This document shows, piece after piece, positions 16,220-46,763 of a DNA stretch of 64,000 nucleotides. Numbering within the stretch: position 1 is the stretch's first letter; every line of letters starts with the position of its first letter. The position numbers were made by a program, and so were the translations under genes. The stretch is from Tubulanus polymorphus (taxonomy: Eukaryota > Animalia > Nemertea). The notes under the pieces were generated by a model. It had not been told where the DNA came from, did no database searches, and saw only the letters and a list, made by a program, of their open reading frames with translations. The stretch covers positions 7,572,655-7,636,654 of the forward strand of contig NC_134033.1 in NCBI RefSeq assembly GCF_964204645.1, read 5' to 3'.

Positions 16220-16289
16220 AGTCATTGGAAAAGTTGGCTTTCAGATCAGAGGACGAGATGACGAGACACCACTCATCACCACAAGTAAT
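16220..16289 (+). repeat. Left TIR of Polinton A
   Basis: AGTCATTGGAAAAG...CCACAAGTAAT, complementary to 46694-46763. Confidence 0.93.
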
Positions 16290-16304
16290 TTTTTTCCCTA
16301 ATAA

Positions 16305-19300
16305 ATGGGGGAGAATGAACACCAGCCAGAAAACAATAATGTTAATAAAGATCAATATTATTGCACAGATTGTAAAAAATACGTCGATACATCTAATAAA
16401 ACACGACATGAAAAAACTGCAAATCATATAAAAAATGTAATAGATTTTGAAACTCCAGAAAATTCCAATGAAAGAAAAGAAAGATTAGAAAATATGAATG
16501 TGGATGAAATAAAATGTGAAGTTTGTAATGAATTTATAGTAAAAAGGAATTATAATAGACATCTCGAATCACAAAAACACCATCAAAATTTGAGTAATAA
16601 TGTTTTAGGAAAAGATTATTTTGATGATAAACCTCAAAAAGTAAAAAAGCCAACTTCAAAAACTAAATCCATTTCAAATAAACCTTACATGGAAAATGTT
16701 AGAAATTATATTGATTCACTAGAAATAAAAGATACTATTGAAATTTTAGAAACATTACATAGTAAAATTGGTCCTGCAGCTATTATATTTAGATTTTTTA
16801 AAGGAACAACAATAGAAGATTATAGTACATTTAATGAAATAATAGAAAAAATACTAGATTTGATAACAGATGTTGAATATCCAAAAATTAGTATCTCTGG
16901 GAAAGTAAGTTTTATAAAGTCAGAAGAAAAAATGAATTATAATATTCAAACACACTCTAAAGAAATAATTTCAAAAACACAAATAAAAGAGAAGTTAGAA
17001 AAAATATTTAATGAATTTAAACGTCATATTGAAGAAAGATATTTTGAGGGTTCTGGCTTAACATTGAATGAAATTATATATTTAGATTTAAATGTTTATA
17101 ATACAAAAAGAAATAAAACATCAAAAAGTAAAACAATGTTTGAAAATGATTCAAACTTTACAACAGAAAAGGATATTAAAGCATCATCTTATATTAAATT
17201 ACCATTTACAACAAAAGCAGTAATAAATGTTCAAAATGAAGATAATAAATGTTTTCTATGGTCAATTATTAGTTGCTTACATCCAACACAGGAAAATGTT
17301 TGTAAAATAACAGATTATCGGAAATATGAAACATTATATAAAATTGATCAATATCCAGTAACTATAAAAATGATTTCTAAAATAGAAAAATTTAATAATT
17401 TAAAAATAAACGTATTCGAATTAATGCAATTACCAAAGACAAAAGGTGAAAATATTAAAGATTATACATTGGAAGCTTTATATTTAACAGAATATTATGA
17501 TGATGAAAATGCTATAGATTTGTTATATTACAAAAAAGATGAACATGAACATTATATGTGGTTAAAACAAATTGATTTATTCTTTAGAACAGAAAGTGAT
17601 CATCATCATAAAATTTATCTATGTAGAAAATGTTTATCTAAATTTATGACTGAGAATACATTATTAAAACATAAAGAATTATGTGATAATAAAGATTTTT
17701 GCAAATTAATAATGCCAACAGAAAAAGATTATAAATTGAAATTTACTAATCATAAATTTAAGAATATTGTTCCATTTGTAATTTATGGAGATTTTGAATC
17801 GTTGAATAAAGAATTAACTGATCAAGATAGAAAAGAAATATATAACAAAAAGCAATTATTAAAATCAATGGATAAAGGAAATGAATTAAATGAAGACACA
17901 ATACAAGACCCACCAATTATAAATACAATTAAAAAAGTTCATCAAAGAGCTGCTGTTTTTGGAATTTATATAAAATCAAATTATCCCGAATTATATGAAA
18001 GTCAATATATTTCTTTTAGAGGTGAAAATGTAGTTAATGATTTTTGTGATAAAATGATTGAATTAGAAAGTGATTTTGCAAAATTATTAAACAAAAATAA
18101 AAGAATAGTTATGACAAAAGAAGATGAAATTGATTTTAATTATGCAACTCATTGTTGTTATTGTGAAAAACGTTTTTATTCATTTGATAAAAAAGTTAGA
18201 GATCATGATCATTTAAATTCAAAATATCGTGGAGCTGCTCATGAAGATTGCAATTTACAAGCTAAGAAAGTTAATTTCGTACCAATATTATTTCATAATT
18301 TATCAGGCTATGATACCCATCTATTTATAAAACAATTATCGGGACAATTGGGCGCAATTAATCAAGAAATAGAAGAATATAATGCTATGAATGGTGTAAA
18401 TGTAAGAAAATATGATTTTAAACTATTAGCTAAAACATCTGAAAATTATATTTCATTTCAATTTGGTTGCATTAGATTTTTAGATTCTTATAGATTTCTA
18501 GCAAGTTCATTAGATAATTTATCAAAAAGTTTAGTTGATAATGATTTTGTTATAACTCGATATTATTATCCAAATGAACAAGATTTTAAATTATTGAGAT
18601 ATAAAGGTGCAATTCCTTATTCATTTTATAAAACACACAATGATTTTAATGTAACAGAATTATTAAAAGATCAATTTTATGATCAATTAAAAGAGGAGTA
18701 TGTGAAAGACGAAGTGTTTAATAGAACATTAAATATTTGGAACCATTTTAAGATGAAAAATCATGGTAAATTAGTTGATTTATATTTAAAATCAGATGTT
18801 ATGATATTGGCTGACATATTTGAAAAATTTAGAGAAGTTAATTTGAATCATTTTAATGTTGATCCTTGTTATTGCTACTCTAGTCCTGGTTTAACCTGGC
18901 AATATGGTTTAAAATATACAAATGTAGAATTAGATTTATTAAAAGAACCAGATATGGTTTTATTATTTGAAAAATCAATTAGAGGTGGAATTAGTGGTGT
19001 TATGGGAGATAGGTATTTTAAAGCAAATGATGAATACAAATTATTATATATTGACGCCAATAATTTATATGGCTGGGCAATGATGCAACCCCAACCATAT
19101 AAAAATTTTATATTAACAGAAGTTGAAAATGATTATAAAACTAATTGGGAAAGCGCAATTATGAGTTTAGAAGACGAAGCTCCAATTGGTTATTTCCTTG
19201 TAGTTGATTTAGAATATCCTGAAAATATAAAGTTTAAAACAAGAAACTTACCTTATTGCCCAGAACATTTAACTGTAGATGATAGTTATTTAAGTGAATA

Positions 19301-20736
19301 CCAGAAGAAAATAAAACCGAAAGATCATGTTTTTACAGAAAAATTAATACTTACTCAAAATAATAAATACAATTATATTGTTCATTATAGAATGTTAAAA
19401 TTTTATCTAAAACAAGGAATGAAATTAAAGAAAGTACATAGATATATCGAATTTAATCAATCGAAGTGGTTAGAAAAATATATAGATTTCAATACTCAAC
19501 AGAGAACAATATCAAAAACAGATTTTGAAAAAGATTTCTTCAAATTAATGAATAATAGTTTTTATGGTAAAACATGTGAAATATTAGAAATAGAAATGAT
19601 ATTGAATTAGTAAATAATTCTGAACGATTAAGACATTTACAATCAAGTCCTAGACATTTAGGAAATAAAAGATTTGAAGATTATTTAACAGCAGTTAAAT
19701 TAAAAAGAACGTCAATGAAATTTAATAAACCTATATTCATTGGTTCAACTGTTTTAGAAGTATCAAAATTATTAATGTATGATTTTTATTATAATGTTTT
19801 ACAACCACTTTTTGGGGAAAAGCATATTGAAATATTATATTTTGATTCTGTAACAGCTGACACCCCAATATTATTAAAATGTAATGATAAAATATTGATA
19901 AGAAGAATTTCAGAAATAATTCCAAAACAAAATGAATGTTATATTTCATATGGTGAAAAAGAATCAATACAAATAAATGGATTAATGGATGTATGGACAA
20001 GAAATGGATGGAAAAAATTAAAGAATATTATTAAGCATAAAACAAATAAGAAAATCTATAGAGTTAGAACTAAATTAGGGTTCGTTGATGTTACAGAAGA
20101 TCATAGTTTAATTAAACGAAATGGTGATGAAATAAAACCAACTGATATTGGAGACGAATTATTACATAAAAGATTTTTCCAAAGAATGAATCATATGTCA
20201 TTTGATGAAATAATTGATAATATTTATAACATAGAACCCGAAACATTAGAAGAAAAAGAATATTTTATCAAAGGATTTTTCATGGGAGATGGTTCAGCAG
20301 GTGTGTATAATTATGTTTGGGGTAATAAATATTGCTGGTATTTATGCAATCAAGACTTAAAATTATTAGAAAGAATTAAGAAATTCTCTGAAGAAGTTTA
20401 TTCACATAAAACATTCAAAATCATAGATGTTATGAAATCATCGCAATGTTATAGAATACATGTGAATAATCCTAAAGATTTTGCTATAAAATATGATGAC
20501 GAATTCTATATTCATGCAATAGTGAAAAGTAAAAGTAAAAGTAATAGTTGTTCCAGATAATGTATTAAATGCAAAAAAATAATTTAAGAAAGTGGTTCTT
20601 CATTGGATTCTATGCCGCAGATGGCACTAAAAAATTTACAAAGGATAAAAAGATAACCTTTGCACAGAAAGGAAAAGTTGCTATATCAGGATTAAATATA
20701 TTATGCAGTTCATTAGGATTTAATATGAATATAGAA
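16305..20736 (+). pseudogene. Polinton A protein-primed DNA polymerase B (N-extein plus first ~297 codons of intein)
   Basis: ExoI YGDFES, ExoII FHNLSGYD, ExoIII YLKSDV, motif A YIDANNLYGWAM, motif B KLMNNSFYGK, YFD; 1-nt deletion ~19580. Confidence 0.95.
19847..20736 (+). other. Intein N-terminal part with LAGLIDADG homing endonuclease
   Basis: Block A SVTADTPI, block B VTEDHSL, FIKGFFMGDG and (after a frameshift ~20575) FFIGFYAADG. Confidence 0.92.
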
Positions 20737-21535
20737 ATATAGCTGCAAAGCAGCGATAACGGGTTTTCTGCACAGTCTTTGAATCCTGTTCAATGGTTAA
20801 CACAGTTTTATAAGAGGAAGCTCGACAGACAGTCAATTAGACCTTCTTGAAACCATGGACAACTGGACTTGATGTCCTATTTGACTCTGGAAAATCGACT
20901 GTTAGGCGATAATTACTCTTTATGATTTCGACAAAGCATTTGATAAGGTACAACATCAGCCATTACTAAACAAGGCTATTAGGAAACAGTATCAATGATA
21001 GGTTGCCGAAATGGCTCAGCATTATATCTGAACGAAAACTTGTAGCCGAAATCAACGGAACGCCTCATCTTGGAATAAGTCGGTCTAACTAGTGGAGTCA
21101 CGCAAGGTAGTATCCTAAGTCGTCTTCTAATGTCCTGACAAATGACATACACAGTAATCCAAAATATACCAGACCGAGTAAATTTCCAAAACGACCTTAC
21201 CACACTGTTCGACCAAAAAACTTAATGTTCCGATAAAACCACGGGGACAAAACCAAAATTATGAATTGTCGCCGGTGACAAAACCAAAATAATGAATTGT
21301 CACGGGCGACAAAACAAAAATAATGAATTGTCGAGGGCGATAAAACCAAAATAATGAATTGTCGCGGGCGATAAAACCACAAATAATGAATTGTCGCGGG
21401 CGTTAAAACCAAAATATTGAATTGTCGCGGCGATAAAACCAAAATAATGAATTGTCGCGGACGACAAAAACAAAATATTGAATTGTTGCGTGCAACAAAA
21501 CCAGAATAATGAATTGTCGCGGGCGACAAAACCAA

Positions 21536-22941
21536 ACTAGGGGTCCAGGGACACCATGCTCACTTGGGAAGTGGTTTCAAATGCTCAACAATCTAACAAT
21601 TTCAATACACAACGCCCTCTAGTGACCATATACAAAAACCAATGACCTTGAAACCCACCACAATCATAGTACATGTGAGCAGCTATGATTTTGTAATTGA
21701 TTGTGAAATATGCCTCGTTACCAATTTAATATGGAAATACTAAGTTATTCTACTATTCAACGCCCCTGGTGACCATATGCAAAACCCCATGACCTTAAAA
21801 CTCACCACAATTGTAGTACATGTCATGAAATACAACTTTGCAATTGATCATAGTAACAAAATATGCCTAGGTACCAATCTAATAAGGAAATACTAAGCCA
21901 TTCTACTATTCAACGCCCCCTGGTGACTATATGGAATAACTAATGTCCTTAAAAACTCACCACAATCATAGACGATGTCATGATCTACAACTTTGCAATG
22001 GATCATGGTAACAAACTATGCCTAGGTACCAATCTAATAAGGAAAAACTAAGCTTTTCTACTATTCAACGCCCCCTGGTGACTATATGGAATAACTAATG
22101 TCCTTAAAAACTCACAACAATCATAGACGATATCATGAACTACAACTTCGCAATTGATCATGGTAACAAAATATGCCTTGGTACAAATATAATATAGCAA
22201 TACTAAGTTATTGTATTATTCAACGCCCCCTGATGGCCACATACTAAAACCAATGACCTTGAAACTCACCAAAATCATAGAACACGTTATGGGCTACAAC
22301 TTTCTAATTGAATATAGTAACACAATATGCTTAGGTATCGATTTAATGTGGAAAAACTTTTTCCCACCTACGAATGAGTACTGATGACACCAAGATGGCC
22401 GCCAATTGCGTCATAATTAGCTGATCAAAAATACCTGTCCCAGGTATAAAATATCCCTCTCTAAGGAATACCCATCAGCAATTGCAATGAGAAATGGCAA
22501 ACCAGTAGGGAGCTACAGGACCTAGAATTCTGGCCTAAATTGACATTTTTGGGCACTAAAAAGGTCATAGGACGGCCATCTTGAGTCAGATCGACCCAAT
22601 TTTCTTATGCTGATGGGCCTTTGGTAGATTCAAATATAAACGAAAGATCAAGGTAATTGATCAAAGCGTCTTCAAAATTTCCCACGAAAACTTCGAAAAT
22701 GTTTAAAAAGTGCTGATTTTGGCAAACAACAATGGCTGCCAGTCGGCCATCTTTAATCTGACAGGGCCTGTTTTTGGGCTGACGATGTGTCTAGGGTAGA
22801 TACATGTATACACCAAATATCAAGACATTACCTTGAAGCGTCTTCAAAACTTCCCAAAATAACTGGATTCCGTCTATAGACGGACGGACGGACGAAAAGT
22901 GAACACAATAGCCCGCTGCGACTAAAGTCGCAAGTGGACTG
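21536..22941 (-). mobile_element. 1.4-kb HINE nested in a satellite unit
   Basis: Reverse complement of 2151-3560; 5' fragments recur at ~24650-24793 and ~26120-26263. Confidence 0.72.
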
Positions 22942-25900
22942 AAAAAGAATTGTCGCGGGCGACAAAACCAAACTAATGAATTGTCGCGGGTGATAAAACC
23001 AAAATATTGAATTGTCGCGGGCGACAAAACCAAACTAATGAATTGTCGCGGGCGATAAAACAAAAATATTGAATTGTCGCGGGCGATAAAACCAAAATAA
23101 TGAATTGTCTCGGGCGATAAAACCAAAATAATGAATTGTCGGGGCGACAAAACCAAAATAATGAATTGTCGCGGGTGATAAAACCAAAATATTGAATTGT
23201 CGCGGGCGACAAAACCAAACTAATGAATTGTCGCGGGCGATAAAACAAAAATATTGAATTGTCGCGGGCGATAAAACCAAAATAATGAATTGTCTCGGGC
23301 GATAAAACCAAAATTATGAATAGTCGGGGCGACAAAACCAAAATAATGAATTGTCGCGGGCGACAAAACCAAAATAATGAATTATTGCGGGCGATAAAAC
23401 CAAAATATTGAATTGTCGCGGGCGATAAAACCAAAATAATGAATTGTCGCGGGCAACAAAACCAAAATATTGAATTGTCGCAGGCGACAAAACCAAAAAA
23501 AAATTGTCGCGGGTGACAAAAACAAAGTATAAAACGAAAATAATGAATTGTCGCGGGCGTCAAAACCAAAAACAAGAATTGTCGCGGGCGACAAAACCAA
23601 AATAATGAATTGTCGCTGGAGATAAAACCAAAAAAAGAATTGTCGGGGCGACAAAACCAAAATAATGAATTGTCGCGGGCGATAAAACCAAAATAATGAA
23701 TTGTCGCGGGCGATAAAACCAAAATAATGAATTGTCGCGGGCGACAAAACCAAAATGATGAATTGTTGCGGGCGACAAAACCAAAATAACGAATTGTCAC
23801 GGGCGATAAAACAGTAATAATGAATTGTCGCGGGCGATAAAACCAAGATAATGAATTTTCTCACGCTACAAAACCAAAATAACGAATTGTCACGGGCGAT
23901 AAAACAGTAATAATGAATTGTCGCGGGCGATAAAACCAAAATATTGAATTGTCGCGGGCGACAAAAACAAAATATAAAACCAAAATAATGAATTGTCGAA
24001 GGCGACAAAACCAAAATAATGCATTGTCGCTGGCGATAAAACCAAAGTAATGAATTGTCGTGGGCGATAAAACCAAAATAATGAATTGTCGCGGGCGACA
24101 AAATCAAAATCATTGTTTTCTTGCGTTATTTTTGTTTTGTCGTAATGTCGCCCTTATTTGCATATTCGTGTTTTTTTATCTTATCAGCCACCATACTAAA
24201 GCTTTAAGGTCGCGTAAAACTCGATAAACACTTCAAGCGACACAGCGAACGATCTCCTTTCCCCCACAGCGAACACTTACTCCGAATGTCAAGTATGAGT
24301 CCAGCATACGGATAGGAGTGTGTTATATACTTGTATTTAGTAAATACCTTGTGGATTTGACAATGATCGGTATGTACTGTAGGAAATATAGAGTATTGAT
24401 GGTATTGATATAGAGGGCCGCGGCCGAATAAAGTAATATATTGTTTTATTTTGATACCTCGTCGACATAACAGCTTTTCTCCGCTATATCTCTTCGGCGT
24501 GTTTAGTTTAGGCCTACGACTCCACGCTACGACTCCCCGGTACACTTATGATTTATCTTAGTAAAACTAAATTAACTGCTTGACGCCCGCAGCCAAATCA
24601 CTGGTAGTAATAAATTAATTTGTACTCGATTTGATTCTCAGAATGCCAGTTTTTGGGCTGACGATGTGTCTAGGGTAGATACATGTATAAACCAAATATC
24701 AAGACATTACCTTGAAGCGTCTTCAAAACTTCCCAAAATAACTGGATTCCGTCTATGGACGGACGGACGGACGAAAAGTGAACACAATAGCCCGTAATGA
24801 ATTGTCGCTGGAGATAAAACCAAAGTAATGAATTGTCGTGGGCGATAAAACCAAAATATTGAATTGTCGCGGGCGACAAAACCAAACTAATGAATTGTCG
24901 CGGCAACAAAACCAAAAAAAGAATTGTCGGGGCGCGACAAAACCAAAATGGTGAATTGTCCAGGCGACAAGATCAAAATGGTGAATTGTCTCGGGCGACA
25001 AAACAAAAATAATGAATTGTCGTGGGCGATAAAACCAAAATAATGAATTATCGCGGGCGATAAAACCAAAATATTGAATTGTCACGGTTGATAAAACCAA
25101 AATAATGAATTGTCGCGGGCGACAAAACCAAAATATTGAATTGTCGCGGGCGACGAAACCAAAATATTGAATTGTCGCCGGCGATAAAACCAAAATAATG
25201 AATTGTCGCGGGCGACAAAACCAAAATGATGAATTGTCGCGGGCGACAAAACCAAAATAACGAATTGTCACGGGCGATAAAACAGTAATAATGAATTGTC
25301 GCGGGCGATAAAACCAAGATAATGAATTTTCTCACGCTACAAAACCAAAATAATGAATTATCACGGGCGATAAAACCAAAATATTGAATTGTCGCAGGCG
25401 ATAAAACCAAAATATTGAATTGTCGCGGGCGACAAAAACAAAATATAAAACCAAAATAATGAATTGTCGAAGGCGACAAAACCAAAATAATGCATTGTCG
25501 CTGGCGATAAAACCAAAGTAATGAATTGTCGTGGGCGATAAAACCAAAATAATGAATTGTCGCGGGCGACAAAATCAAAATCATTGTTTTCTTGCGTTAT
25601 TTTAGTTTTGTCGTAATGTCGCCCTTATTTGCATATTCGTGTTTTTTTATCTTATCAGCCACCATACTAAAGCTTTAAGGTCGCGTAAAACTCGATAAAC
25701 ACTTCAAGCGACACAGCGAACGATCTCCTTTCCCCCACAGCGAACACTTACTCCGAATGTCAAGTATGAGTCCAGCACACGGATAGGAGTGTGTTATATA
25801 CTTGTATTTAGTAAATACCTTGTGGATTTGACAATGATCGGTATGTACTGTAGGAAATATAGAGTATTGATGGTATTGATATAGAGGGCCGCGGCCGAAT

Positions 25901-27497
25901 AAAGTAATATATTGTTTTATTTTGATACCTCGTCGACATAACAGCTTTTCTCCGCTATATCTCTTCGGCGTGTTTAGTTTAGGCCTACGACTCCACGCTA
26001 CGACTCCCCGGTACACTTATGATTTATCTTAGTAAAACTAAATTAACTCCTTGACGCCCGCAGCCAAATCACTGGTAGTAATAAATTAATTTGTACTCGA
26101 TTTGATTCTCAGAATGCCAGTTTTTGGGCTGACGATGTGTCTAGGGTAGATACATGTATAAACCAAATATCAAGACATTACCTTGAAGCGTCTTCAAAAC
26201 TTCCCAAAATAACTGGATTCCGTCTATGGACGGACGGACGGACGAAAAGTGAACACAATAGCCCGTAATGAATTGTCGCTGGAGATAAAACCAAAGTAAT
26301 GAATTGTCGTGGGCGATAAAACCAAAATATTGAATTGTCGCGGGCGACAAAACCAAACTAATGAATTGTCGCGGCAACAAAACCAAAAAAAGAATTGTCG
26401 GGGCGACAAAACCAAAATAATGAATTGTCGCGGGCGACAAAACCAAAATGGTGAATTGTCCAGGCGACAAGATCAAAATGGTGAATTGTCTCGGGCGACA
26501 AAACAAAAATAATGAATTGTCGTGGGCGATAAAACCAAAATAATGAATTATCGCGGGCGATAAAACCAAAATATTGAATTGTCACGGTTGATAAAACCAA
26601 AATAATGAATTGTCGCGGGCGTCAAAACCAAAATATTGAATTGTCGCGGGCGACGAAACCAAAATATTGAATTGTCGCGGGCGATAAAACCAAAATAATG
26701 AATTGTCGCGGGCGACAAAACCAAAATGATGAATTGTCGCGGGCGACAAAACCAAAATAACGAATTGTCACGGGCGATAAAACAGTAATAATGAATTGTC
26801 GCGGGCGATAAAACCAAGATAATGAATTTTCTCACGCTACAAAACCAAAATAATGAATTATCGCGGGCGATAAAACCAAAATATTGAATTGTCGCAGGCG
26901 ATAAAACCAAAATATTGAATTGTCGCGGGCGACAAAAACAAAATATAAAACCAAAATAATGAATTGTCGAAGGCGACAAAACCAAAATAATGCATTGTCG
27001 CTGGCGATAAAACCAAAGTAATGAATTGTCGTGGGCGATAAAACCAAAATAATGAATTATCGCGGGCGATAAAACCAAAATATTGAATTGTCACGGTTGA
27101 TAAAACCAAAATAATGAATTGTCGCGGGCGACAAAACCAAAATATTGAATTGTCGCGGGCGACGAAACCAAAATATTGAATTGTCGCAGGCGACAAAACC
27201 AAAATAATGAATTGTCGCGAGAGACAAAACCAAAATAATGAATTATCGCGGGCGATAAAACCAAAATATTGAATTGTTGCGGGCGATAAAATCTAAATAT
27301 TGAATTGTCGCGGGCGACAAAACCAAAAAAGAAAAATTTCACGGGCGACAAAAACAAAATATAAAACCAAAATAATGAATTGTTGCGGGCGACAAAACCA
27401 AAATAATGCATTGTCGCTGGCGATAAAACTAAAGTAATGAATTGTCGTGGGCGATAAAACCAAAATAATGTATCGTCGCGGGCGACAAAATCAAAAT
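22942..27497. repeat. 31-bp satellite arrays alternating with a ~690-bp block (higher-order period ~1471 bp)
   Basis: Arrays 22942-24110, 24795-25580, 26266-27497; block copies at 24204 and 25675. Confidence 0.92.
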
Positions 27498-29919
27498 CAT
27501 TGTATTCTCGCGTTATTTTAGTTTTGTCGTAATGTCGCCCTTATTTGCATATTCGTGTTATTTATCTTATCAGCCACCATACTAAAGCTTTAAGGTCGCC
27601 TAAAACTCGATAAACACTTCAAGCGACACAGCGAACGATCTCCTTTCCCCCACAGCGAACGCTTACTCCGAATGTCAAGTGTGAGCCCAGCATACGGATA
27701 GGAGTGTGTTATATACTTGTATTTAGTGAATACCTTGTGGATTTGACAATGATCGGTATGTACTGTAGGAAATATAGAGTATCGATGGTATTGATAAAGA
27801 GGGCCGCGGCCGAATAAAGTAATATGTTCTTTTATTTTGATACCTCGTCGACATAACAGCTTTTCTCCGCTATATCTCTTCGGCGTGTTTAGTTTAGGCC
27901 TACGACTCCCCGGTACACTTATGATTTATCTTAGTAAAAACACGGTAAATTTGGTAAAGAAAAATAGGTATCGCTAAATTAACTGCTTGACGCCCGCAGC
28001 CAAATCACTGGTAGTAATAAATTAATTTGTACTCGATTTGATTCTCAGAATGAGAGAAACTCGCAGCTGATTCCCGGAACGACGATGTAGTGACACACGT
28101 CGATTTGTCGATGTTTACGGCTCGACAGTGCTTTTAAAATCTAAAGTAGTAAATTTCCTGTGTATCAGTAATATAATTTGATGAGGAAAATGGGTTACTG
28201 TTAAAATTAGTTTTTAAAAACCGCGACAGAATGTGCAATCTTTCGGTAATAAATTTGTTAATTTATGCTTGAATTGATAATCGATGTGATAAGAAACGTG
28301 CGGTAGATTTCGGAAAGACGACTTAGAAAAACATGTCGGCTCTTTGAATGGGGCTCAATTTTCGAAGTTTACGGCCCGACAGTGCTTTTGTAACGTTGAT
28401 TCTTCAAAATTCGCACGGAGTATTTGTAGATCGAACTGAGCTGAATGATATCAGACGGATTGTATCGGCAACAGCGGTAATGTAAAAAAGCCTATGTCCT
28501 TTTGACAAAAAATGTGTGGAAAAAAATAATAATAATAATAATAACTATAGCTGCAAAGCAGCGATAACGGGTTTTCTGCACAGTCTTAGAATCCTGTTCA
28601 ACGGTGGATTTCGACGAAGCATTTGATAAGGCACAACATCAGCCATTACTAAACAGGCTATTAGGAAACAGTATCAATGATAGGTCGCCAAAATGGCTCA
28701 GCAGTTATCTCTGAACGAAAACTTGTAGCCGAAATCAACGGAACGCCTCATCTTGGAATAAGTCGGTCAAACTAGTGGAGTCACGCAAGGTAGTATCCTA
28801 AGTTGTCTTCTGTTTAATGTCCTGACAAATGACATACACAGTAATCCAACATATACCACACCGAGTAAATTTCCAAATCGACCTTAACACGCTGTTCGAC
28901 CAAAAAACTTAATGTTCCAACAAGAAAATCTTGTTCGAATGAAAATAATTCTGTTTGATCGAACAATACGCTTTTTGCTTGAACCAAAAATTTTCTTCAT
29001 TCTGACAAAAAATGTGTTCGAATAAAAAGCTATGTTATTGTTGAAATGAAAAATTTTAAGTCCCGGCAAAAAAATTTGGTCGAGCGAAAACAACTTTTTC
29101 GAACGAATGTTTGAATGAAAACAATTCTGTTCGATTGAACGAAATACTTCATACTTTCGGTTTGGAGAAAAAATTTTTTTCAATATACTTGTTCGAACGA
29201 AAAACTTAATGTTCTGACAAGAAAATTCTGTTCAAATTAAAAAAGATTCTGTTCAATTGAACGATTGTTCGAACGAAAAACCTTTCGTTTGGACAAAAAA
29301 AAGTTTGTTCATGTTTGTTCTTACGATTTTTTCAAATTGGTTCAATCGTATAGAATATTATTGGTTCGAACGAAATAAATTTTGTTCCGACGAAAGAATT
29401 TTCAAGCGAAAGGTCTTTTGAACGAAAAAAAAGATATTTCTGGTGCTCCGCAGTAACTTAAAGCCGGATGTAGGTTGGTCTTGTGACACGATGCGATCCT
29501 CGCGTTGCATCGCAAGTTTCAGTGCAAGTCGGTTGCAATACGATTGTGTGCGACTAGTTTCTGCCAGTCGCAAGAGCGCGTCGGTTGGTTGTGACAGTCG
29601 TGTCGCGTCGCAGAAAGTAGAACACGTACGACTCCATGTGACTGGCGTTGCTGAAAGATGAGGACGCCAGTGATATGACGACTGAGTTTCAATTCGTCAA
29701 AACGTCACGTTGTGTCAACATATTTATGTTGACTTGATGCGATATATCGCGATATATCGACATAATTATGGCGACTTGTCGTGTTTGAACGCGACAACTC
29801 GAGGCCCTTTATCGCTTCCGTAGATCTTTCATTAAGTAGGATCACTTGAATGATCGCTTTAATATCACTTTAAAAAAAAAAGAATCTGCCAAAATGACCT
29901 TAATATTCGACACTATATG

Positions 29920-33446: not shown

Positions 33447-33902
33447 ACTGACAGTTACATACTAAAAATCAAGACAAATGACATAACAAAAGACTTAAAA
33501 ACATTAAAACATCATTTTGATTTTAGCAATTATCCCAAAGATCATGAACTATTTAGCAATGATAATAAAAAGATTCCTGATAAATTTAAAGATGAATTAG
33601 GGGGTGATGAAATGATTGAATTTGTTGGGATAAGAAGTAAAATGTATAGTTACAGAACAAAAGATCATGAAGCTAAAAAGTTAAAAGGAATAACAAAACA
33701 TGTGGTTGATAAACATATAGAATTTCAAGATTATATAAAGTGTTTATATAAATCAATTGTAATGAAACATAAAATGAATTGTTTAAGATCAGAAGATCAC
33801 GAGATGTACATTAATGAAGTTGAAAAAACTAGTTTGAATCCATTTGATGATAAAAGGCGTATTTTAGATGATGGTATAAAAACATTACCTTATGGTTATT
33901 AA
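33447..33902 (+). pseudogene. Polinton A pPolB C-extein
   Basis: TDSYILKIK...KFKDELGG..GIRSKMY...LNPFDDKR, open frame to the stop. Confidence 0.93.
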
Positions 33903-35215
33903 AACATAAAATCAATATCATCATACTCGAAATCACTAGTGGCTTCTTCATTTTCATTTAATTGTTCTTGTATAATTTGTTTAGGTTCTTCCATTTCATT
34001 TTTCTCATTTAAATAAAGTTCTATCTTGTATCACATTTCATCTCGCTCTCTTTGTTTCTTTTTGTTTGTTAATTCGTCAAATGGAATTATAATATCGATG
34101 TTTAAATAATTTACAATCTTATTTAAAAAGAATTCATAATTAATTGAATCTGTTATTCTATTTTCCAAATGATACATTAATATTTGTTTGAATATTTTTT
34201 TTATATTTTCCATATCTTCTTCTGTTAATTTAGGTTTTTCATAATAATAAATATAAATACATTTTCTTTTGTTTTGTGTTAAATGTTGACGGAATAATTG
34301 TTTTTATAATATCTTTTTTAGTTATTTCACCATTTTTATTTTCTATTATTTTCATTTTTTCAAGCCATTGCATATATTCTGGTGTATGATCTTCTATAGA
34401 AAATATTTAAAAAATTTCATCTAGATAATTTAATTTCGGTTCTATGAGAAAATTTCTAGTTTTTTCTTCACCCCATGAATTCTTTTGCCATCCACAATCA
34501 ACACAAAATAACACAGTACCTTCTTGTCTTAAGGTCGCATAACTACATTGTGGACATTTTCGTTTATAATTTATTGGTAATAGATCTTCATTAAGCTCCT
34601 GGTATTTTCTTACGTTTTCTTTATGTTTTATTGTTCTATTATGTAGATTTGAATTACTTGTTGTAATAATCAATTTACAATATTTACAATTATATGTTTT
34701 CTTGTTAATTCATTATATTGTTTTTCTAACTTTTCAACTGTTTCTTTATTATCTGGTAACGTTTTCTCATATTTTATTTTTCCTAATAAATTATTTTTTC
34801 TTTCATTGAATTCAGTTTCAAATTTATTAGAAATTTTATCTATATGTACTTTACGAAATTGATGATTCTCCCAATCTTCTATATTTTCAGGGCTATATTT
34901 TACTCGACAAGGCTCGCAGAAATGATCTTTTATATTATCCTTATCATAGAATAAGAAAGGTCTTTTCCAAATAACTTCAGGTTCAACTTCAGCAGAATTA
35001 CTATTACTTTCATTACTATCAACATTAGCCGTTGCACCATTAATTTTACACTTCTCTGAATGTTTTTTAACATAATTTCTTGAGAATAATTTATTACATT
35101 TTGGGCAGTTTAGTTTAGGGGGTTTATAATTTTCTTCATGTTTTTTCATATGTCGAGCCATATTACTTTTTCTTAGAAGTTCATCACAAATTTCGCATGC
35201 TATCTTCTCATCCAT
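33899..35215 (-). pseudogene. Multi-zinc-finger + poxvirus A2/VLTF3-like late transcription factor, ~435 aa reconstructed
   Basis: Joins ORFs 34670-35215, 34407-34673, 34031-34213 across two frameshifts and two stops; CPQC..CVDCG ribbon, NFLIEPKLNYL, IKKIFKQILMYHLEN, INYEFFLNKI. Confidence 0.75.
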
Positions 35216-35273: not shown

Positions 35274-36029
35274 ATGGTAGAATTAAAAGAATACAGAATA
35301 TTTGTTGATTCAAGAAGACTTACAAATTATAAATCACATAATTTAATAGTTCAATTAGATAGAGAATTCAAGAATGGTGTTGATTTAAAATTAGTAAATA
35401 TAAGTTTATGTAACTCATTTTACAATATATCGGATAAAAGTTTTGATCATAGATTGTTTATGATTCATGATAAAAATATGGATAAATGGTATCATCTATT
35501 TCTAAGACCAGGATTATATAATTTAGAAACATTATCTCACGAAATTAATAGAAGAGCTCGGTTAAAAGTGGGTGAATCTGTTGGGTTTAACATTAAATTT
35601 AATAAAATTGATAGTACTAATAAAATAAGAATAAAGTTAACTAATGAACAATATAAATTCATAGTAAGAAAACCATTAGCTAAAATGCTAGGAGTTAATC
35701 CAAATAAAGTTTATTCAAATGTTGATACTACGCCAAATATAATACCTTTTACGCACTTCTATATTTATTGTAATTTAATTGATCCTACAAAAACATTCGA
35801 AGCAACTAAAGATACAATTTGTAATTCTAGTATATTAAATATTTTACCATTAAAAAATGTTAAACAATTTGGAACGCAAATAAATTATAATTTAGCTGAA
35901 TGTGATTTTAAACCTTGTATTCCACATTTCAATAATTTTAAATTAGAAATAAGAAATCATAATGGTTATTTAATTGATTTGAATAACTTTCCTGTAATTT
36001 ATGAATTAGTTATAAGATGTAAAGAGTAA
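35274..36029 (+). CDS. Minor capsid protein (penton)
   Basis: 251 aa, beta-rich, N-terminal IFVDS..N..F/L and C-terminal G.LIDLNNFP pattern; Polinton context. Confidence 0.75.
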   Translation: MVELKEYRIFVDSRRLTNYKSHNLIVQLDREFKNGVDLKLVNISLCNSFYNISDKSFDHRLFMIHDKNMDKWYHLFLRPGLYNLETLSHEINRRARLKVGESVGFNIKFNKIDSTNKIRIKLTNEQYKFIVRKPLAKMLGVNPNKVYSNVDTTPNIIPFTHFYIYCNLIDPTKTFEATKDTICNSSILNILPLKNVKQFGTQINYNLAECDFKPCIPHFNNFKLEIRNHNGYLIDLNNFPVIYELVIRCKE

Positions 36030-36045: not shown

Positions 36046-36399
36046 ATGAATATAACTGTTGGACCGAGTATATGTTTTGGATTTGATTTTAAACGTGAGA
36101 AAGAAATGAAATTTAACATTAATGATGTAATTACACATATCAAAAATATTGCATTTTCTAATGAAACAACATTTGAGTATGAAACAACAATAGACAAAGA
36201 AACTTTAAATGTAGAAAAGATTACTAATTTAATTAGAGAATCTTTAAGATTTTATGAATTAGATGAAGATTTTATCATAGATGATATTAAAAAAATAATA
36301 ATTGAAATATATACAAATGAAACTAGTAATGAAATAAATGTTGAATTAATCATAAATAAGTTAACTAAATATTTTGAAGATAGTAATTTTTTTGATTAA
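36046..36399 (+). CDS. Polinton hypothetical protein
   Basis: Intact; homolog at 47053-47367. Confidence 0.7.
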   Translation: MNITVGPSICFGFDFKREKEMKFNINDVITHIKNIAFSNETTFEYETTIDKETLNVEKITNLIRESLRFYELDEDFIIDDIKKIIIEIYTNETSNEINVELIINKLTKYFEDSNFFD

Positions 36400-36402
36400 T
36401 AA

Positions 36403-36624
36403 ATGAGTGATAATAAGTGGATAATAACTGGATTATATAATGGCGCATTACTATCAGTTGGAACTGTTGGTTATTCAATGGTATTAAAAAAAGTATTTAA
36501 AATGGGAAGTGTTAATGTTGATAGATTTGATATAAATGATATTTTAAAATTAACATTAGCAGTTACTTTATCTAATTTAACTATTGATTATTTGGAAAAA
36601 CAAAAATATATTCCTCCCATATAA
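36403..36624 (+). CDS. Small two-helix hydrophobic protein
   Basis: Two hydrophobic segments; conserved in B. Confidence 0.7.
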   Translation: MSDNKWIITGLYNGALLSVGTVGYSMVLKKVFKMGSVNVDRFDINDILKLTLAVTLSNLTIDYLEKQKYIPPI

Positions 36625-36648
36625 ATGCATAATTTTTTTGCTAAATAA

Positions 36649-37071
36649 ATGGCTTCTGCAATTATAACTATTATAGGATCGGCAATTGTTAACGCTTTAG
36701 CATTTACTGGTGGCGGTTATTTATTTAAGCATATTGATAAAAATAGTTCATTAGGAGAACAAAGAAGACATAACTTAGCATTAGAGAAATACAATAAAGC
36801 AGCGGAAGAATATAGAGAAAAACGACAAAACTATATGGATTATATTAACAAGGAATTATATGATCAGAAGATTTCACATAGAGATTTTCAATCAGTTGAT
36901 GATGCAATGAGTTTAGATAACGCAGTAACCAATAAAGAAAAATTACATAAATACAAACCTAAATTATCAGATTATTATACCCCGAGTAAAGAACAACAGA
37001 AATATGAAATAATTTGGATTTTAGGTGGAACTGTTATTGTTATATTTGTAGCATATAAATTTACTTATTAG
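36649..37071 (+). CDS. Membrane protein (N- and C-terminal hydrophobic helices, central coiled coil)
   Basis: Intact; close homolog at 47613-48035. Confidence 0.78.
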   Translation: MASAIITIIGSAIVNALAFTGGGYLFKHIDKNSSLGEQRRHNLALEKYNKAAEEYREKRQNYMDYINKELYDQKISHRDFQSVDDAMSLDNAVTNKEKLHKYKPKLSDYYTPSKEQQKYEIIWILGGTVIVIFVAYKFTY

Positions 37072-37090
37072 TAATTTTTTTTCTAAATAA

Positions 37091-37525
37091 ATGGAAGATA
37101 AAGTTGATAGTATTGATATTATTCCTCATGATATAAATAAAACTAAATTAAAAATATATTTAGAAAAACAAATATTAGAATTTGAAAGTGACTTAAAGAT
37201 AAAAAAGAAAAAATATTTAAAAAGTAAAATTATATATTATCTTATTATTAGTGGTTCGGTTACAATTAGTTCTGTAATAACATTTCTAGCAATATTCAGT
37301 CCATCAACACCTTTAGCTATATCAATTGGTGTATTAGGATTAAGTTCAAGTGTATTAACTGGTATAAGTTCAAAATTATATATAAAAAGTAATAAAGAAA
37401 AATTTAAAACTAATATCAAAGAAATTAATAAATTGAAGAATACACTAGATTATATAATAAGTTTAAATGGTCATATAACAGTTGAAGAACGAGATAAATT
37501 ATTAAAAGAATTAATAAATTATTAA
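37091..37525 (+). CDS. Two-TM protein
   Basis: IIYYLIISG...AIF and LAISIGVLGL segments; truncated homolog at 48055. Confidence 0.72.
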   Translation: MEDKVDSIDIIPHDINKTKLKIYLEKQILEFESDLKIKKKKYLKSKIIYYLIISGSVTISSVITFLAIFSPSTPLAISIGVLGLSSSVLTGISSKLYIKSNKEKFKTNIKEINKLKNTLDYIISLNGHITVEERDKLLKELINY

Positions 37526-37541
37526 TTTTTTAATTAGATAA

Positions 37542-40177
37542 ATGGTAGATAGTTTTCCAAAAGCTTTCCAATATAATAAATCAATTAAATATAATATTCC
37601 AGCAATAGATTTTAATAAATATATTACATATAGAAATGAAGTTTTAGATTCATTAACTAATTTAGAAATTTATGTTACTGAAACTAATAATTTTAATGCA
37701 AAGATGGAAAATATATTTCATGTATATTTAATTAATTCTAAGAAATTGAAAGATGAAAAACAACGGTTATTAAAATCTAATATGAAGTATTGGCAGAACC
37801 AATTAATTTTGCTGTTTATTGTGCAACAACAGGATGTGGAATTAGTTGGAATGATCATTTGAATAATTCTAAATATAAATTAATTCAAAGTTTATTTAGA
37901 TTTCATACATACTTTCAAATCAGAATATTAAATGAATTAGAGTGCGCTTTACCAGGATCTAGGTATTTTAAAGAATTAGATAATAATATTAATTTATCAA
38001 AGTTTTCTAAAATTTGTAATGAATTTAATATAGATATAAATAATTCTGATTTTAGAACAAAAATTGGAACAATAAGATCACTTCCTTGCCCTAAAAAGAT
38101 TGCAGAATATTGTGCACTTCCCATACCATCTAATAGTTTGTATAATATCTATAGTAATAAATTAGGTTATGGTAAAATAGAAACTAAGGATTTAGAAACA
38201 TTAAATTTCAATAAATTACCGACATTTTATGATAATTTAAAACAAGAAAACAATAATGGTTGGGTTTATTTCATTTTAGAAAATAATGAAGGTTTTACAA
38301 AATCAGGTATACAAAGAATAAATCAATCTATTAGAACTTATTTGATATGTATTTTAGGTGCGCAAGTTGAAACAAGATCCCCAATAATTGGAAATTTAAA
38401 TACATCATTTGATACACAGAAACAATTCAAAGTATTATTTGAAGATTCTATTCATAATGATAAAAATAGATCGATTCCAGAAAACATTGTAAGATATCAA
38501 AATTATTTAGATAAATCTCAACAACATTTGAGTATGAAACAACAATAGACAAAGAAACTTTAAATGTAGAAAAGATTACTAATTTAATTACAGAATCTTT
38601 AAGATTTTATGAATTAGATGAAGATTTTATCATAGATGATATTAAAAAAACAATAATTGAAATATATACAAATGAAACTAGTAATGAAATAAATGTTGAA
38701 TTAATCATAAATAAGTTAACTAAATATTTTGAAGATAGTAATTTTTTTGATTAATAAATGAGTGATAATAAGTGGATAATAACTGGATTATAAGATGTAA
38801 AGAGTAATTATTTCACTATATAAATGAATATAACTGTTGGGCTGAGTATATGTTTTGGGTTTGATTTTAAACATGAGAAAGAAATTAAATTTAACATTAA
38901 TGATGTAATTACACATATCAAAAATATTGCATTTTCTAATGAAACACCATTTGAGTATGAAATAACAATAGATAAAGAAACTTTAAATGTAGAAAAGATT
39001 ACTAATTTAATTAGAGAATCTTTAAGATCTTATGAATTAGATGAAGATTTTTAAAATCGATGATATTAAACAAATAATAATTGAAATATATACAAATGAA
39101 ACTAGTAATGAAATAAATGTTGAAATAATCATCACTAAGATAACTAAATATTTTGATGATAGTAAATTTTTGATAAATAGATGAGTGATAATAAGTGGAT
39201 AATAACTGGATTATATAATGGCGCATTACTATCAGTTGGAACTGTTGGTTATTCAATGGTATTAAAAAATGTATTTAAAATGGGAAGTGTTAATGTTGAT
39301 AGATTTGATATAAATGATATTTTAAAATTAACGTTAGCAGTTACTTTATCTAATTTAACTATTGATTATTTGGAAAAAACAAAAATATATTCCTCCCATA
39401 TAAATGCATAATTGTTTTGCTAAATAAATGGCTTCTGCAATTATAACTCTATTATAGGATCGGCAATTGTTAACGCTTTAGCATTTACTGGTGGCGGTTA
39501 TTTATTTAAGCATATTGATAAAAATAGTTCATTAGGAGAACAAAGAAGACATAACTTAGCATTAGAGAAATACAATAAAGCAAATAATGAAGGTTTTACA
39601 AAATCAGGTATACAAAGAATAAATCAATCTATTAGAACTTATTTGATATGTATTTTAGGTGCGCAAGTTGAAACAAGATCCCCAATAATTGGAAATTTAA
39701 ATACATCATTTGATACACAGAAACAATTCAAAGTATTATTTGAAGATTGGAAAATCATGTAATAAATCTCATGTAAGACTAAATTATTGTATAGGCCCTA
39801 ATCTATTAATCATTTCTAATGATTTAGTACTAAAGATGGGAAACATAATTGGTTACAATAATATAATTAAAACTGCAACAATAAATAATTCATTTGGATT
39901 AAATAATATAAATAAAAAGATTATTACCGCTCCAAAATTAATGGAAGGTGAAAAAAATAAAAAACACATTCAATCAACAGAAACTAAAACTAAAAATATT
40001 AAATTGCATAATGATTCTAAAATAAAAGATTACAATACATCAGAAAATATAAAAACTGATAATATTCAACATGATATAATTAAAACTGATAATGATAATA
40101 AATTCCATGAAAATACTAAATTAGCTTTAACTTGTACAGGAATTGTTATAGGAGGAATATTATATTTTAAATTTTAA
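37542..40177 (+). pseudogene. Polinton hypothetical gene with C-terminal TM, interrupted by duplicated segments at 38521-39760
   Basis: Frameshift ~37795; frame resumes at KSHVRLNYCIG via ATAAATCTCA homology. Confidence 0.65.
38521..39760 (+). repeat. Mosaic internal duplication of 36009-36802 and 38281-38447
   Basis: Degenerate second copies of the 36046, 36403 and 36649 genes. Confidence 0.85.
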
Positions 40178-40193: not shown

Positions 40194-41652
40194 ATGGATG
40201 TAGAAGGTGGAGAAGATATTGGAATGGATCCTTTAGATGAACCTGGTATAACTGATGAACAACAACCTGATTTTAGTGAAACAAGTTTTAATGACGGTAA
40301 TGAGTCAGGATATAATAATAATTTAAATATGCCTGATTATATTAAAAATGCAGAATCACAATTAAATCCTGAAAATTTAGACCCAGATTTAGTAAAACAA
40401 GATTTAGATTAATTTAAACAAAATACCTAAATAAGAAGATTTAATTGAAAAATCTAAACTTAACATAAATGATGAAGACGTAGGACTTTTAGCAGATCAA
40501 TTAAAATTTCTAGATAATGGTAAATGTTATTATCGTTTGAAAGATGATTATTATGTTGATATCACTTATAAAAATAATAAAAATAAAATATTATCAGAAT
40601 CAACTTTAGAAAAATTAAAACCAGATAGAATTAAAAGAATAAGTAATAGTAATGAAATAACTGATGTTACACAAAAAGAAAGAGATGATAATATAGACGT
40701 ATTTAAACAAAAAATTAATGAATTATTTGAAATAATCAAAAAGAAATCAGAAGCAGAAACAACTTCTGAACAGAATATAACTTCCAAAACTAAAAAACTT
40801 AAATCAAATAAAGTTCCAATTGAAAAACTTTTACCGAATGGATTAATTGATGCAACAGATCAACAGTTAGAAGATTTAAATAACATATTTTCTGATGAAG
40901 CAATTAGAGAAATTAAAAGTATAAGACTTGCATCTGATAAAATTGCGCATGATAAAAGTATAAGAGATTTAAAAATTAGAACTTTAGAAGATGAATTATT
41001 TAAATCAAGAAAAGAATCGGAACAACTAAAATTAGATAGAGATAATAAAGTTATTGAAGAAATCGAATTTAAAAAAAGAAATGCATATTTAGAAAAAGAA
41101 ATTGATGATTTAGAATATAACATAGAATTACAAAAAGAAGAAATTAAATCATTAGTAAAATCATATGATTATAATATTAATAGATTAAAAGTTATTTTTA
41201 AAGATTTATTGATAAAACCAAATTCTGAAATATCATTGAAAGATAGAATAAAGTTATTATTTAAATTAGAAGGAATAACAATTCTTTCAATTCTAACAGC
41301 TGTAACTATATTATTTACAACAATTGGTTTAGCAATATCAAATGCTTTAAAATCTACTCCTACTCCAAATAAACCAGATAAACCCCCAGATAATAATTCT
41401 ATACAAGATAAAGTTAATGATGGTTTAAAGAAATTAGCAAAATATTTATGGGAACTATCTAAAAAATCTGCTGCAGCTTTACCCGGAGTTATTGCATCAA
41501 TTGTTGGTTTTATATTGAAATCTGCAGGAAATATTCTTAACTTTGCTGCTGAACATTATTTTATTTTTAATTACAGTTGTAAGTGCTATTATTTTTGGGC
41601 TAGTGAATATGATATCAAAAGATATCAAGTAAACATAATCAAAAATAAATGA
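40194..41652 (+). pseudogene. Acidic/coiled-coil protein with C-terminal hydrophobic helices
   Basis: ORFs 40194-40412 and 40537-41652; TAAATG start. Confidence 0.65.
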
Positions 41653-44083: not shown

Positions 44084-44692
44084 ATGAATAAGGAATTATT
44101 TATATTTGAGCCTCATAATATGTTAATTTCTGGCGTAACAAATTGTGGAAAAACTTATTTTATATTAAATTTATTAGAAACTGTTTATAAAAACTATTTT
44201 GATAATATAGTATTATTTTGTCCAACATATGAATTTAATCAAACTTATGATAGAAATATTACTAGAAATAATAAATTTATTATATTAGATCCTAAAACAG
44301 TAAAAGAAAATTTAGATAATTGTATAAAAATAGCAATTGATATTTATAAAGGATCAAATACATTATTCATTATAGATGATTGTGCTAATCTACATGATTC
44401 AAAAGTTAGAGAGAGTGAGTTATGCTATTTAGCTTTTTCTGGCAGACATTTTGGGATAACAACTTGGGTTTTAAATCAAAAATATAATTCAATTGTTAAA
44501 GACTTTAGAGAAAACATTAGATTTCTAGTTTTATTCTTCAATAAAGATAGAAAATCGATGAAAAATGCACTTGAGGAAAATGATATTATTCCACATGATT
44601 TACATAATGAATATATGGATAAGTTGAAAAATATTAAAAGATCAAAATTACTATTTAGATTACAACACCCATTTAAATATGAATTTATTTAA
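44084..44692 (+). CDS. A32/FtsK-like DNA packaging ATPase
   Basis: Walker A GVTNCGKT, Walker B FIIDD, GRH, LNQ. Confidence 0.93.
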   Translation: MNKELFIFEPHNMLISGVTNCGKTYFILNLLETVYKNYFDNIVLFCPTYEFNQTYDRNITRNNKFIILDPKTVKENLDNCIKIAIDIYKGSNTLFIIDDCANLHDSKVRESELCYLAFSGRHFGITTWVLNQKYNSIVKDFRENIRFLVLFFNKDRKSMKNALEENDIIPHDLHNEYMDKLKNIKRSKLLFRLQHPFKYEFI

Positions 44693-44996: not shown

Positions 44997-45602
44997 ATGG
45001 TAGGTGAAAAGAAAATAAAATCTAAAAATGGTGATGTTCCAATTGAAAAAACTTTAGATGATTTAGGAATAACAGAAAACAAATTAATTCCAGATAATGG
45101 TGCTTTAAATAATGTTACAACAAATAATAATTATGAATATCATCTTTATTGTAAACATCAATTAGAAATATTAATAGCATCTGGAAAATGCAAAAATTTT
45201 GTCGGTAAAAATTTAACTCATAATGAATTAGATACAATGAAATCAGATGAAATTATTAGATTATTTAAGATTTATGAAGCCGCGAGAACAGCTGTAATTA
45301 ATGACGCGATATCAGAAAATGTAGTAAAAGGTTATAGTAAATTATGTAATTATATACTACCAATTGAAGATGAAAATAGATTATATTCCGATTTAAAAAA
45401 TGATTATTTAGTTATGACTGAATTAAATAAATGGATTGGATATTTATCATTTCAATTAGGTGGATTTATGACATTATTATCAACTGGGGTTATAACATTT
45501 TCAAATAGTGAAAGTAAAAATATTTCTATAATAAATGAGCGAGGTGGAAGAAGTGAAGGAATTAACTGTGAAGAAAAAACCGAGAACTCAGAAACAAATT
45601 GA
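44997..45602 (+). CDS. Polinton hypothetical protein
   Basis: Intact 201 aa, TAAATG start, 5' end conserved in B. Confidence 0.72.
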   Translation: MVGEKKIKSKNGDVPIEKTLDDLGITENKLIPDNGALNNVTTNNNYEYHLYCKHQLEILIASGKCKNFVGKNLTHNELDTMKSDEIIRLFKIYEAARTAVINDAISENVVKGYSKLCNYILPIEDENRLYSDLKNDYLVMTELNKWIGYLSFQLGGFMTLLSTGVITFSNSESKNISIINERGGRSEGINCEEKTENSETN

Positions 45603-45870
45603 ATGGTCTCGGCAATTAGGAATTAAATCACAAGAATATAAAAAAGCTGTAAAAGAAAAAAATAAGTAATAAAAATGTTAATAAAAATGGTGAAAATATT
45701 GTTATTTCTACTCCTTCTAATGATAGAATATTTGATAAATGTTTATATTTTACAGTTGGATTTGTAATTGTATTCATTTTGATTGGGCGTAATTGGTATA
45801 AGAAATCAAATAAAATTTATGATATTAATAATTCTGAAATTCCAAACTTGACAATAAAAAAATGGATTAA
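45535..45870 (+). pseudogene. Small basic protein with TM segment, frameshifted
   Basis: MSEVEE...RTQKQIEWSRQLG then CLYFTVGFVIVFILIG in a shifted frame. Confidence 0.5.
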
Positions 45871-46057
45871 TATTTTAGAAAAAAAGCAAAAAAATAATTT
45901 TTTTTAATTAATTGAATATTAATTGAATATCACCATGTGGGTGCCATACGGCACCATCTCACTACTTTTGTCTATCTATGCGGAGCAATTAAATTGTCCA
46001 GATAAGTCATTTCGGATTCTAGATATTCATTATTTTTATTAATTTATTTTTTTAAAT

Positions 46058-46384
46058 TTAATCAACAATTTCTAAATCATGATGTCCATCTTCATTTTTT
46101 CCATGATAGATTATTTTAAATCCTTCTAAATCTTTTAATTACTCTGTACTCAATGAAACCCATTTATCAGGTAAACATACTTTAAATTCTCGCGATGTAC
46201 TAACATTACAGTAGCTTAAATTAGCTGATACTTTCTTTCCATATTTAGTTTTTATCTTTTCTAATTTCAATATTTTATGTTCAATTTCTTTTGTAACATC
46301 AACTAACTTTTTTATTTCAAATTGTTTTTTTGCTGGTTTTATTCTGTTATTTATTGTTGCTAAGAATGCTTTTCTATCTCCCAT
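46058..46384 (-). pseudogene. Polinton A homolog of the 117-aa putative SSB, premature stop at 46139
   Basis: TKYGKK...LPDKW...YHGKNEDGHHDLEI aligns with NKYGDK...LPDRF...YKGKNEKGHHEIDF. Confidence 0.7.
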
Positions 46385-46693
46385 TTATAAGAAAAACAAA
46401 TTACTTGTGGTGATGAGTGGGGATTACTTCCCCCTGTATATAACAAACACGCCATTAACCGTTCTCACCCAAGCCACACAGCATCTATTTATCTGGGGAC
46501 AGTTGACACGCAATCACTGTACTACAGTAATAGCACACGCGTTAATAACCGTTCTCAGTAGAGACTCACTGTATCGATCTATCCACGCGCAGCTGTTGTT
46601 ACGCGCACTCACTGTATATGTGTACCACAGAGCAATCGTCCGTTCTCACTAGAGCCTAGCTGTGATGAGTGGTGTCTCATACTCAATTGAATT

Positions 46694-46763
46694 ATTACTT
46701 GTGGTGATGAGTGGTGTCTCGTCCTCTCGTCCTCTAATCTGAAAGCCCACTTTTCCAATTACT
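46694..46763 (-). repeat. Right TIR of Polinton A
   Basis: Ends ...TTTTCCAATTACT followed by TSD CACGCA. Confidence 0.93.

Follow-up and report, generated by a model that had tools for sequence, protein, structure and literature searches.

How is a Polinton transcribed when it encodes no RNA polymerase? The question is raised by element A, which occupies positions 16220..46763 of a 64,000-nucleotide stretch of the Tubulanus polymorphus genome (NC_134033.1, positions 7,572,655 to 7,636,654 of the forward strand; hereafter the window). Element A is a Polinton with both ends preserved, bounded by copies of CACGCA, a 6-bp target-site duplication (TSD), and nested in a sibling Polinton, B, whose penton-like gene was the insertion site and which resumes on either side. 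An original prediction, made from the letters of the window, held that a complete Polinton without RNA polymerase had been transcribed in the factory of a pox-like virus, had supplied its own late factor and had picked up an intein during co-infection. The missing polymerase is borne out, as motif and Pfam searches of element A found no RNA polymerase and no pox RNA polymerase subunit. Completeness is not. The element is dead: a 12.5-kb insert, without which it measures ~18 kb, splits the intein, and most core genes contain stops or frameshifts, the breaks affecting, besides the DNA polymerase (pPolB) and its intein, the capsid and integrase genes, the VLTF3-like gene and three more. In addition, an adenain-type maturation protease gave no Pfam match and no tblastn match from the open reading frames (ORFs) of 105 loci, and may have been lost or be too divergent.

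The start codons of element A point to an answer. ATAAATG stands at 14/16 non-duplicated gene starts, on a hand-made list of genes, compared with 36/738 ATGs across the element (binomial P about 5e-17); the 14 such starts of the original prediction are recovered, with 16 rather than 15 genes as the denominator. Upstream, positions -19 to -17 read TAA and positions -16 to -10 hold a T-rich run. TAA falls exactly 13 nt before TAAATG at 12/16 starts but at only 2/43 non-start TAAATG sites, and the integrase and ATPase starts carry an A-rich core in place of the T-rich one. Across the window, the promoter pattern is seen 26 times where 4.65 are expected. Vaccinia late promoters are described in the available text of PMC5294985 as a T-rich core, a 5-7 bp spacer and TAAAT(G/A). 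Judged by sequence, the start motif of element A matches this layout, and the T-run with a ~6-bp spacer that had been predicted is confirmed by the fixed upstream core. By analogy with poxviruses and yeast linear plasmids, the motif is best read as a promoter with its initiator inside TAAAT, because it overlaps the start codon, places T at -3 and keeps its core at a fixed distance. Since element A has no RNA polymerase, such a TAAAT promoter would need a helper.

The TAAATG grammar is a trait of the lineage. Among ORFs of 150 aa or more (first-ATG calls, some spurious), TAAATG starts were counted at 8/9 in the close relatives L014, L015, L017 and L018, whose pPolBs are 62-72% identical, vs 16/376 in 98 other Polinton-type loci (a pool from which L009, L016, L019 and L106-L108 were excluded) and 8/111 in 30 AT-rich control Polinton loci. 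Two giant-virus bins have such starts at 3/23 and 2/29, and a phage-like record at 0/22. L026 shares the capsid module of element A, but its genes start at AAAATG. The cores of the relatives are A-runs or T-runs, a pairing that resembles the intermediate and late promoters of vaccinia. Our literature searches on TAAATG in Polintons, on Polintons with entomopoxvirus promoters and on late transcription factors with helpers turned up no description of a lineage-wide TAAATG grammar. L014 (about 163-210) and L018 (about 195-245) have ends like those of element A, in which AGTAA... precedes a doubled AGG-CGAG repeat. Their flanks are not part of the element, so these relatives are integrated copies as well. 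By inspection, loci of other Polinton groups (L001, L002, L004 and L006) have apparent fixed start-codon motifs of their own (TATAAAA, TATCT). A search of viral contigs for the exact promoter pattern returned 18 loci, 0 of them with at least 3 TAAATG starts, and these were set aside as chance matches.

Element A also carries a VLTF3-like gene. One broken gene, running from 35215 to 33896, takes in both a 181-aa zinc-finger ORF and the VLTF3-like stretch, and L014 has an intact 697-aa homologue (P0284) at the same position. Residues 320-520 of this homologue gave 28/30 Atlas matches to Pox_VLTF3 clusters (0.92-0.93), one of the top three clusters being mostly Preplasmiviricota, and the protein is collinear end to end with two giant-virus-bin VLTF3 proteins (26% and 19% identity). 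These likenesses make membership of the VLTF3 family likely. Of the predicted 'VLTF3/A2-like factor', the family assignment is thus retained, while nothing links this copy to poxvirus A2. Word-index searches for VLTF3 homologues returned nothing or the query alone, and a single-sequence fold of the domain (pLDDT 38) was unusable. PF04947 was found in 0/6 control Polinton records searched, too few to speak to a linkage between VLTF3 and TAAATG. VLTF3 has been reported in polintoviruses of stony corals (PMC11131425) and in others (PMC8502044, bioRxiv 2026.06.19.733378, bioRxiv 2025.10.09.676808), as far as the available texts of these works go.

A second, 20-bp motif occurs in four exact copies in element A, two in the terminal inverted repeats (TIRs), one before the VLTF3-like gene and one before orf81. 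The left-TIR copy serves also as the pPolB promoter, which agrees with the predicted restriction of the motif to the TIR region and three genes. A fifth copy lies in a duplicated arm, outside these four. Close relatives lack the motif at up to 4 mismatches, the search giving two unrelated chance matches, and it is therefore element-specific.

The features of element A and its immediate surroundings are as follows.

11103..16219, no strand given: left part of sibling Polinton B, with a rearranged intein-free pPolB, an OB-like gene and the first half of the penton-like gene
16214..16219, plus strand: left TSD, CACGCA, within the penton-like gene of Polinton B
16220..16288, plus strand: left TIR, 69 bp, terminating in the 20-bp motif (16269-16288) that adjoins the pPolB promoter
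16305..19846, plus strand: pPolB N-extein, with a zinc-finger N-terminus and PF03175; frame change near 19580
19847..20739, plus strand: intein N-part (YFD/S...), HINT and LAGLIDADG; frame change near 20540
20740..33287, no strand given: 12.5-kb insert, 39% GC, with 31-bp and 155-bp satellite arrays; it splits the intein with almost no loss of intein residues
33288..33446, plus strand: intein C-part, ending ...FPLIQKN
33447..33902, plus strand: pPolB C-extein, beginning TDS
33896..35215, minus strand: zinc-finger and VLTF3-like gene, interrupted twice by a frame change and twice by a stop; 20-bp motif at 35232-35251
35274..36029, plus strand: likely minor capsid (penton) protein, one of the two starts without ATAAATG
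36046..38545, plus strand: five small or conserved genes, with ATAAATG at every start
37091-37525, plus strand: one of these five, a SLATT-like protein with two transmembrane segments
37542-38545, plus strand: another of the five, a broken gene common to other Polintons
38520..39748, plus strand: internal duplications of 36010-36801 and neighbours
40194..41652, plus strand: coiled-coil/membrane gene, broken, common to L025 and L036
41673..42920, plus strand: major capsid protein (MCP), one internal stop, 36-37% to L025, L026 and L036
42951..44083, plus strand: rve integrase (INT) carrying a chromodomain, interrupted by a stop and a frame change
44084..44692, plus strand: A32-like packaging ATPase, open frame
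44997..45904, plus strand: two more genes, starting at 44997 and 45535, both with ATAAATG, the second broken
46079..46384, minus strand: orf81, one stop; 20-bp motif at 46401-46420
46695..46763, minus strand: right TIR, 69 bp, 65/69 matching the left TIR, with the 20-bp motif at 46695-46714
46764..46769, plus strand: right TSD, CACGCA
46764..51269, no strand given: right part of sibling Polinton B, with an inverted MCP-INT-ATPase block and ATAAATG starts as in element A

The broken pPolB matches PF03175 (E 3e-17), the broken integrase PF00665 (E 1e-10) in addition to its chromodomain, and the ATPase Pox_A32 (E 3e-13); the capsid matches Capsid_N weakly, and identity to other Polinton loci is 36-41%. 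The penton candidate has Atlas matches of 0.97-0.98 to viral clusters, including Sputnik V18/19 at a 26% share, with recognition below threshold. The orf81 family shows in its predicted fold a weak likeness to an OB-fold single-strand binding protein (Z no higher than 5, pLDDT 60). Scans of viral contigs with the ATPase, the VLTF3 domain, and the OB-like and ATPase alignments found no relatives.

Polinton B is 72-92% alike to element A in DNA, is rearranged by inversions and has an empty intein site, so occupied and empty alleles lie side by side. GC content is 23.5-24% in element A, 23-24% in the flanking Polinton B, 21-23% in close relatives, 36% in distal host DNA and 39% in the insert. AT richness is a trait of the lineage. 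It does not mark element A off from its flanks, as had been claimed, because these flanks are Polinton B and equally AT-rich; higher GC (36-39%) is met only in distal host DNA and the insert. The right end of the insert at 20740-33287 has a 57-bp repeat, and a candidate reverse-transcriptase-like fragment was noticed, by eye only, near 20750-21130. A BEL/Pao retrotransposon remnant lies to the right of Polinton B at 51594-52954; elements of this kind are not known from outside animals, which makes an animal host likely. Window positions 1-11099 and 15528-about 26400 form an apparent large inverted duplication, about 99% identical with indels, that covers the left parts of element A and of the insert and may be either real or an assembly artefact.

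The intein bears on which viruses the lineage has met. It occupies the pol-c site (D/TDS), with a Ser start, an Asn end, Thr at +1, a penultimate Lys that many relatives share, and a LAGLIDADG homing endonuclease domain. The predicted likeness to the pol-c inteins of giant-virus PolBs is upheld by the same site and the HINT/LAGLIDADG make-up. These share the D/TDS site, Ser start, Asn end and LAGLIDADG domain with the intein of element A, which differs in having a protein-primed polymerase as host and in belonging to a clade of 9-10 Polinton inteins. Its closest matches are inteins of other pPolBs (up to 62%), followed by family B polymerases. In a tree of 56 of 209 rows over the unbroken N-terminal 228 residues, whose bootstrap is not fully settled, the partner of element A is P0001 (95/86), and both fall within a group of 9 Polinton inteins (99/98), which a tenth joins weakly (90/31), two rows being classed as Polinton by likeness alone. 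The clade sits among inteins of RNA-primed PolBs. For 4/4 tested viral host polymerases near it, Pol delta was the best match and no poxvirus polymerase was among the matches listed; the PDB does contain poxvirus polymerases. The Polinton intein clade and the Pol-delta-like viral hosts do not fit an acquisition of the intein by element A from a poxvirus, and the predicted pick-up during pox co-infection is given up.

In broad outline, three carrier groups branch in a similar order in the intein and pPolB trees. A single pPolB clade of carriers is rejected, and the intein distribution on the pPolB tree requires at least 4 changes. The nearest kin of element A (L014, B and L018) have an empty site. 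P0005, which lies outside the extein tree, has an intein of the same clade in a pPolB of the other Polinton group, and this suggests a jump between groups. Taken as sequence patterns, these results fit a single ancient transfer out of a giant virus, after which the intein was lost and spread by homing within Polintons. Related inteins also appear, in precomputed Pfam results, in topoisomerase II-type proteins (P0047, P0063, P0092, P0102 and P0109). A literature search, with supplements outside its scope, found no Polinton intein described: the available text of PMC11071308 merely suggests intein invasions for endonuclease insertions, and the word 'intein' is absent from PMC10748475.

We put the chances at about even that live members of the lineage were transcribed, in the manner of virophages, by the RNA polymerase of a large cytoplasmic DNA virus whose initiator was of pox type, their own VLTF3-like factor likely helping. 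Once excised, or while a helper infects, the naked linear DNA would pass into the helper's factory. The helper polymerase would then initiate inside TAAAT and give the transcript a poly(A) leader, which would account for the T at -3 and for the lack of space for a 5' untranslated region. As no early machinery is packaged with the element, all its genes would have late-type starts, pPolB included. A possible target of the VLTF3-fused zinc fingers is the 20-bp motif. The arrival of the intein in Polinton pPolBs would be older, with a Pol-delta-like polymerase of a giant virus as its likely source; among Polintons it would since have been kept, lost and re-gained. [quoted passage not shown] PLVs, too, are documented to borrow promoters. 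Both the promoter grammar and the VLTF3-like gene stand as lineage traits, so helper dependence stays viable and is the best reading.

Several results weigh against a pox-type helper. The C-terminal part of the VLTF3-like protein, with X at the stop, reaches E 4e-4 and 20.5 bits against Pox_VLTF3 (PF04947), below the 25-bit cut-off; the intact L014 homologue has no Pfam VLTF3 match; a two-sequence profile scores 10.9 bits on the domain, with a negative whole-protein score that 120/500 shuffles matched; and the A2L zinc-ribbon (PF08792) was not matched. VLTF3 without RNA polymerase is known in Polintons and also, from partly available sources, in the presumed nuclear mriyaviruses and ariadnaviruses, which weakens it as evidence for a helper. 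The close relatives amount to three elements (L015-L017 being one), and L014, L015 and L018 come from one assembly. L009, on a distant pPolB branch, has TAAATG at 4/4 long ORFs and is possibly a second origin of the motif, and TAAAT-like initiators arose in yeast linear plasmids too (PMC6211774, available text); the motif can therefore arise repeatedly. The intein points to non-pox viruses. Termination and polyadenylation signals were dropped as evidence, TTTTTNT being depleted alike in lineage and controls and AATAAA in neither. L009 is itself a Polinton of 38% GC with a protease apparently fused to its integrase.

Some of this would suit an autonomous nuclear virus or transposon that uses host RNA polymerase II (Pol II), with the zinc-finger VLTF3 as activator and a lineage-specific core promoter, pox-like in layout by convergence: the presence of VLTF3 in presumed nuclear viruses and coral polintoviruses that have no RNA polymerase, integration into nuclear DNA, a late factor carried on board, and the separate TAAATG origin suggested by L009. 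We consider this rival reading unlikely, in view of a motif that overlaps the start codon with T at -3, where other Polintons mostly have A, and of a TATA-like box 8 nt before the ATG, which leaves no space for a Pol II start; the spacing from TATA to start is well established for Pol II.

Alternatively, the helper could be a giant virus of Megaviricetes rather than pox type, with a late promoter that by chance resembles TAAATG; the intein, and perhaps VLTF3, would have come from this group too. The nesting of the intein among Pol-delta-like viral PolB inteins and the end-to-end alignment of the VLTF3-like protein with two giant-virus-bin proteins agree with such a source. Two giant-virus bins, however, seldom start genes at TAAATG (5/52), the late motifs reviewed for mimivirus, Cafeteria roenbergensis virus (CroV) and African swine fever virus (ASFV) differ in the available accounts, and most TAAATG relatives are without the intein, so that we hold this improbable. 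Slightly less credit still goes to a motif that acts on RNA or is a by-product, through stop-start coupling on polycistronic RNA or the copying of one spacer between genes of an AT-rich element, unconnected to any helper. Genes are tightly packed, and TAA doubles as the stop of the gene upstream at INT/ATPase, as does the -19 TAA at two other genes; but the motif also stands at first or divergent genes with no upstream ORF (pPolB, VLTF3-like and orf81), its upstream core keeps a fixed spacing, and AT-rich control Polintons do not have it (8/111).

Much of the setting is already known from the available literature, which covers Polintons and their VLTF3, the borrowing of promoters, and PLVs that accompany poxviruses (PMC11296320). 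Like Polintons/Mavericks (Polintoviricetes; Alpha adintoviruses, Starrett et al. PMC8502044), element A has a PF03175 pPolB, an rve integrase, an A32 ATPase, an MCP, a likely penton, TIRs and a 6-bp TSD. Unlike typical ones, it has TAAATG at nearly all genes, a pol-c HINT/LAGLIDADG intein and no protease that could be found. Polintoviruses and PLVs that carry VLTF3 (stony corals, PMC11131425; bioRxiv 2026.06.19.733378; Tetraselmis PLVs) resemble it as Preplasmiviricota with VLTF3 and without RNA polymerase; element A has VLTF3 fused behind zinc fingers and a pox-type start motif, which the available texts do not report there. The entomopoxvirus-associated PLVs (Barth et al. PMC11296320), as far as their description is available, are of Polinton type and are proposed poxvirus hyperparasites in animals, as suggested here, but they were found in occlusion bodies and have a known helper, and rve was not detected in AHEV_PLV1. 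The main text of that paper makes no mention of promoter, VLTF, TAAAT or intein. Mavirus/EMALEs, Sputnik and Gezel-14T are likewise integrated or small dsDNA parasites with genes under the motif of a helper promoter; in the available accounts they differ in protist hosts, Imitervirales helpers, other motifs and experimental proof. The yeast linear plasmids pGKL (PMC6211774, available text) share pPolB, AT richness and a TAAAN initiator with poly(A) leaders, but encode their own RNA polymerase and have no capsid or integrase.

For Polintons, a HINT/LAGLIDADG intein clade in polymerases of two pPolB groups, apparently derived from giant-virus PolBs, is a record of past contact between Polintons and giant viruses. 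The lineage-wide pox-type motif makes the question of autonomy versus helper need in animal Polintons testable and, if the helper reading is true, predicts a pox-like virus in a host with none on record here. It is possible, although we lean against it, that the members of an animal Polinton lineage are virophages of poxviruses in the true sense. They would reside in the germ line until roused by a pox-type virus as yet unreported from this host, be read by its RNA polymerase at TAAATG starts, and steer that polymerase with a zinc-finger VLTF3 of their own. If so, unseen helper viruses would have left a legible trace in the start-codon motifs of endogenous Polintons.

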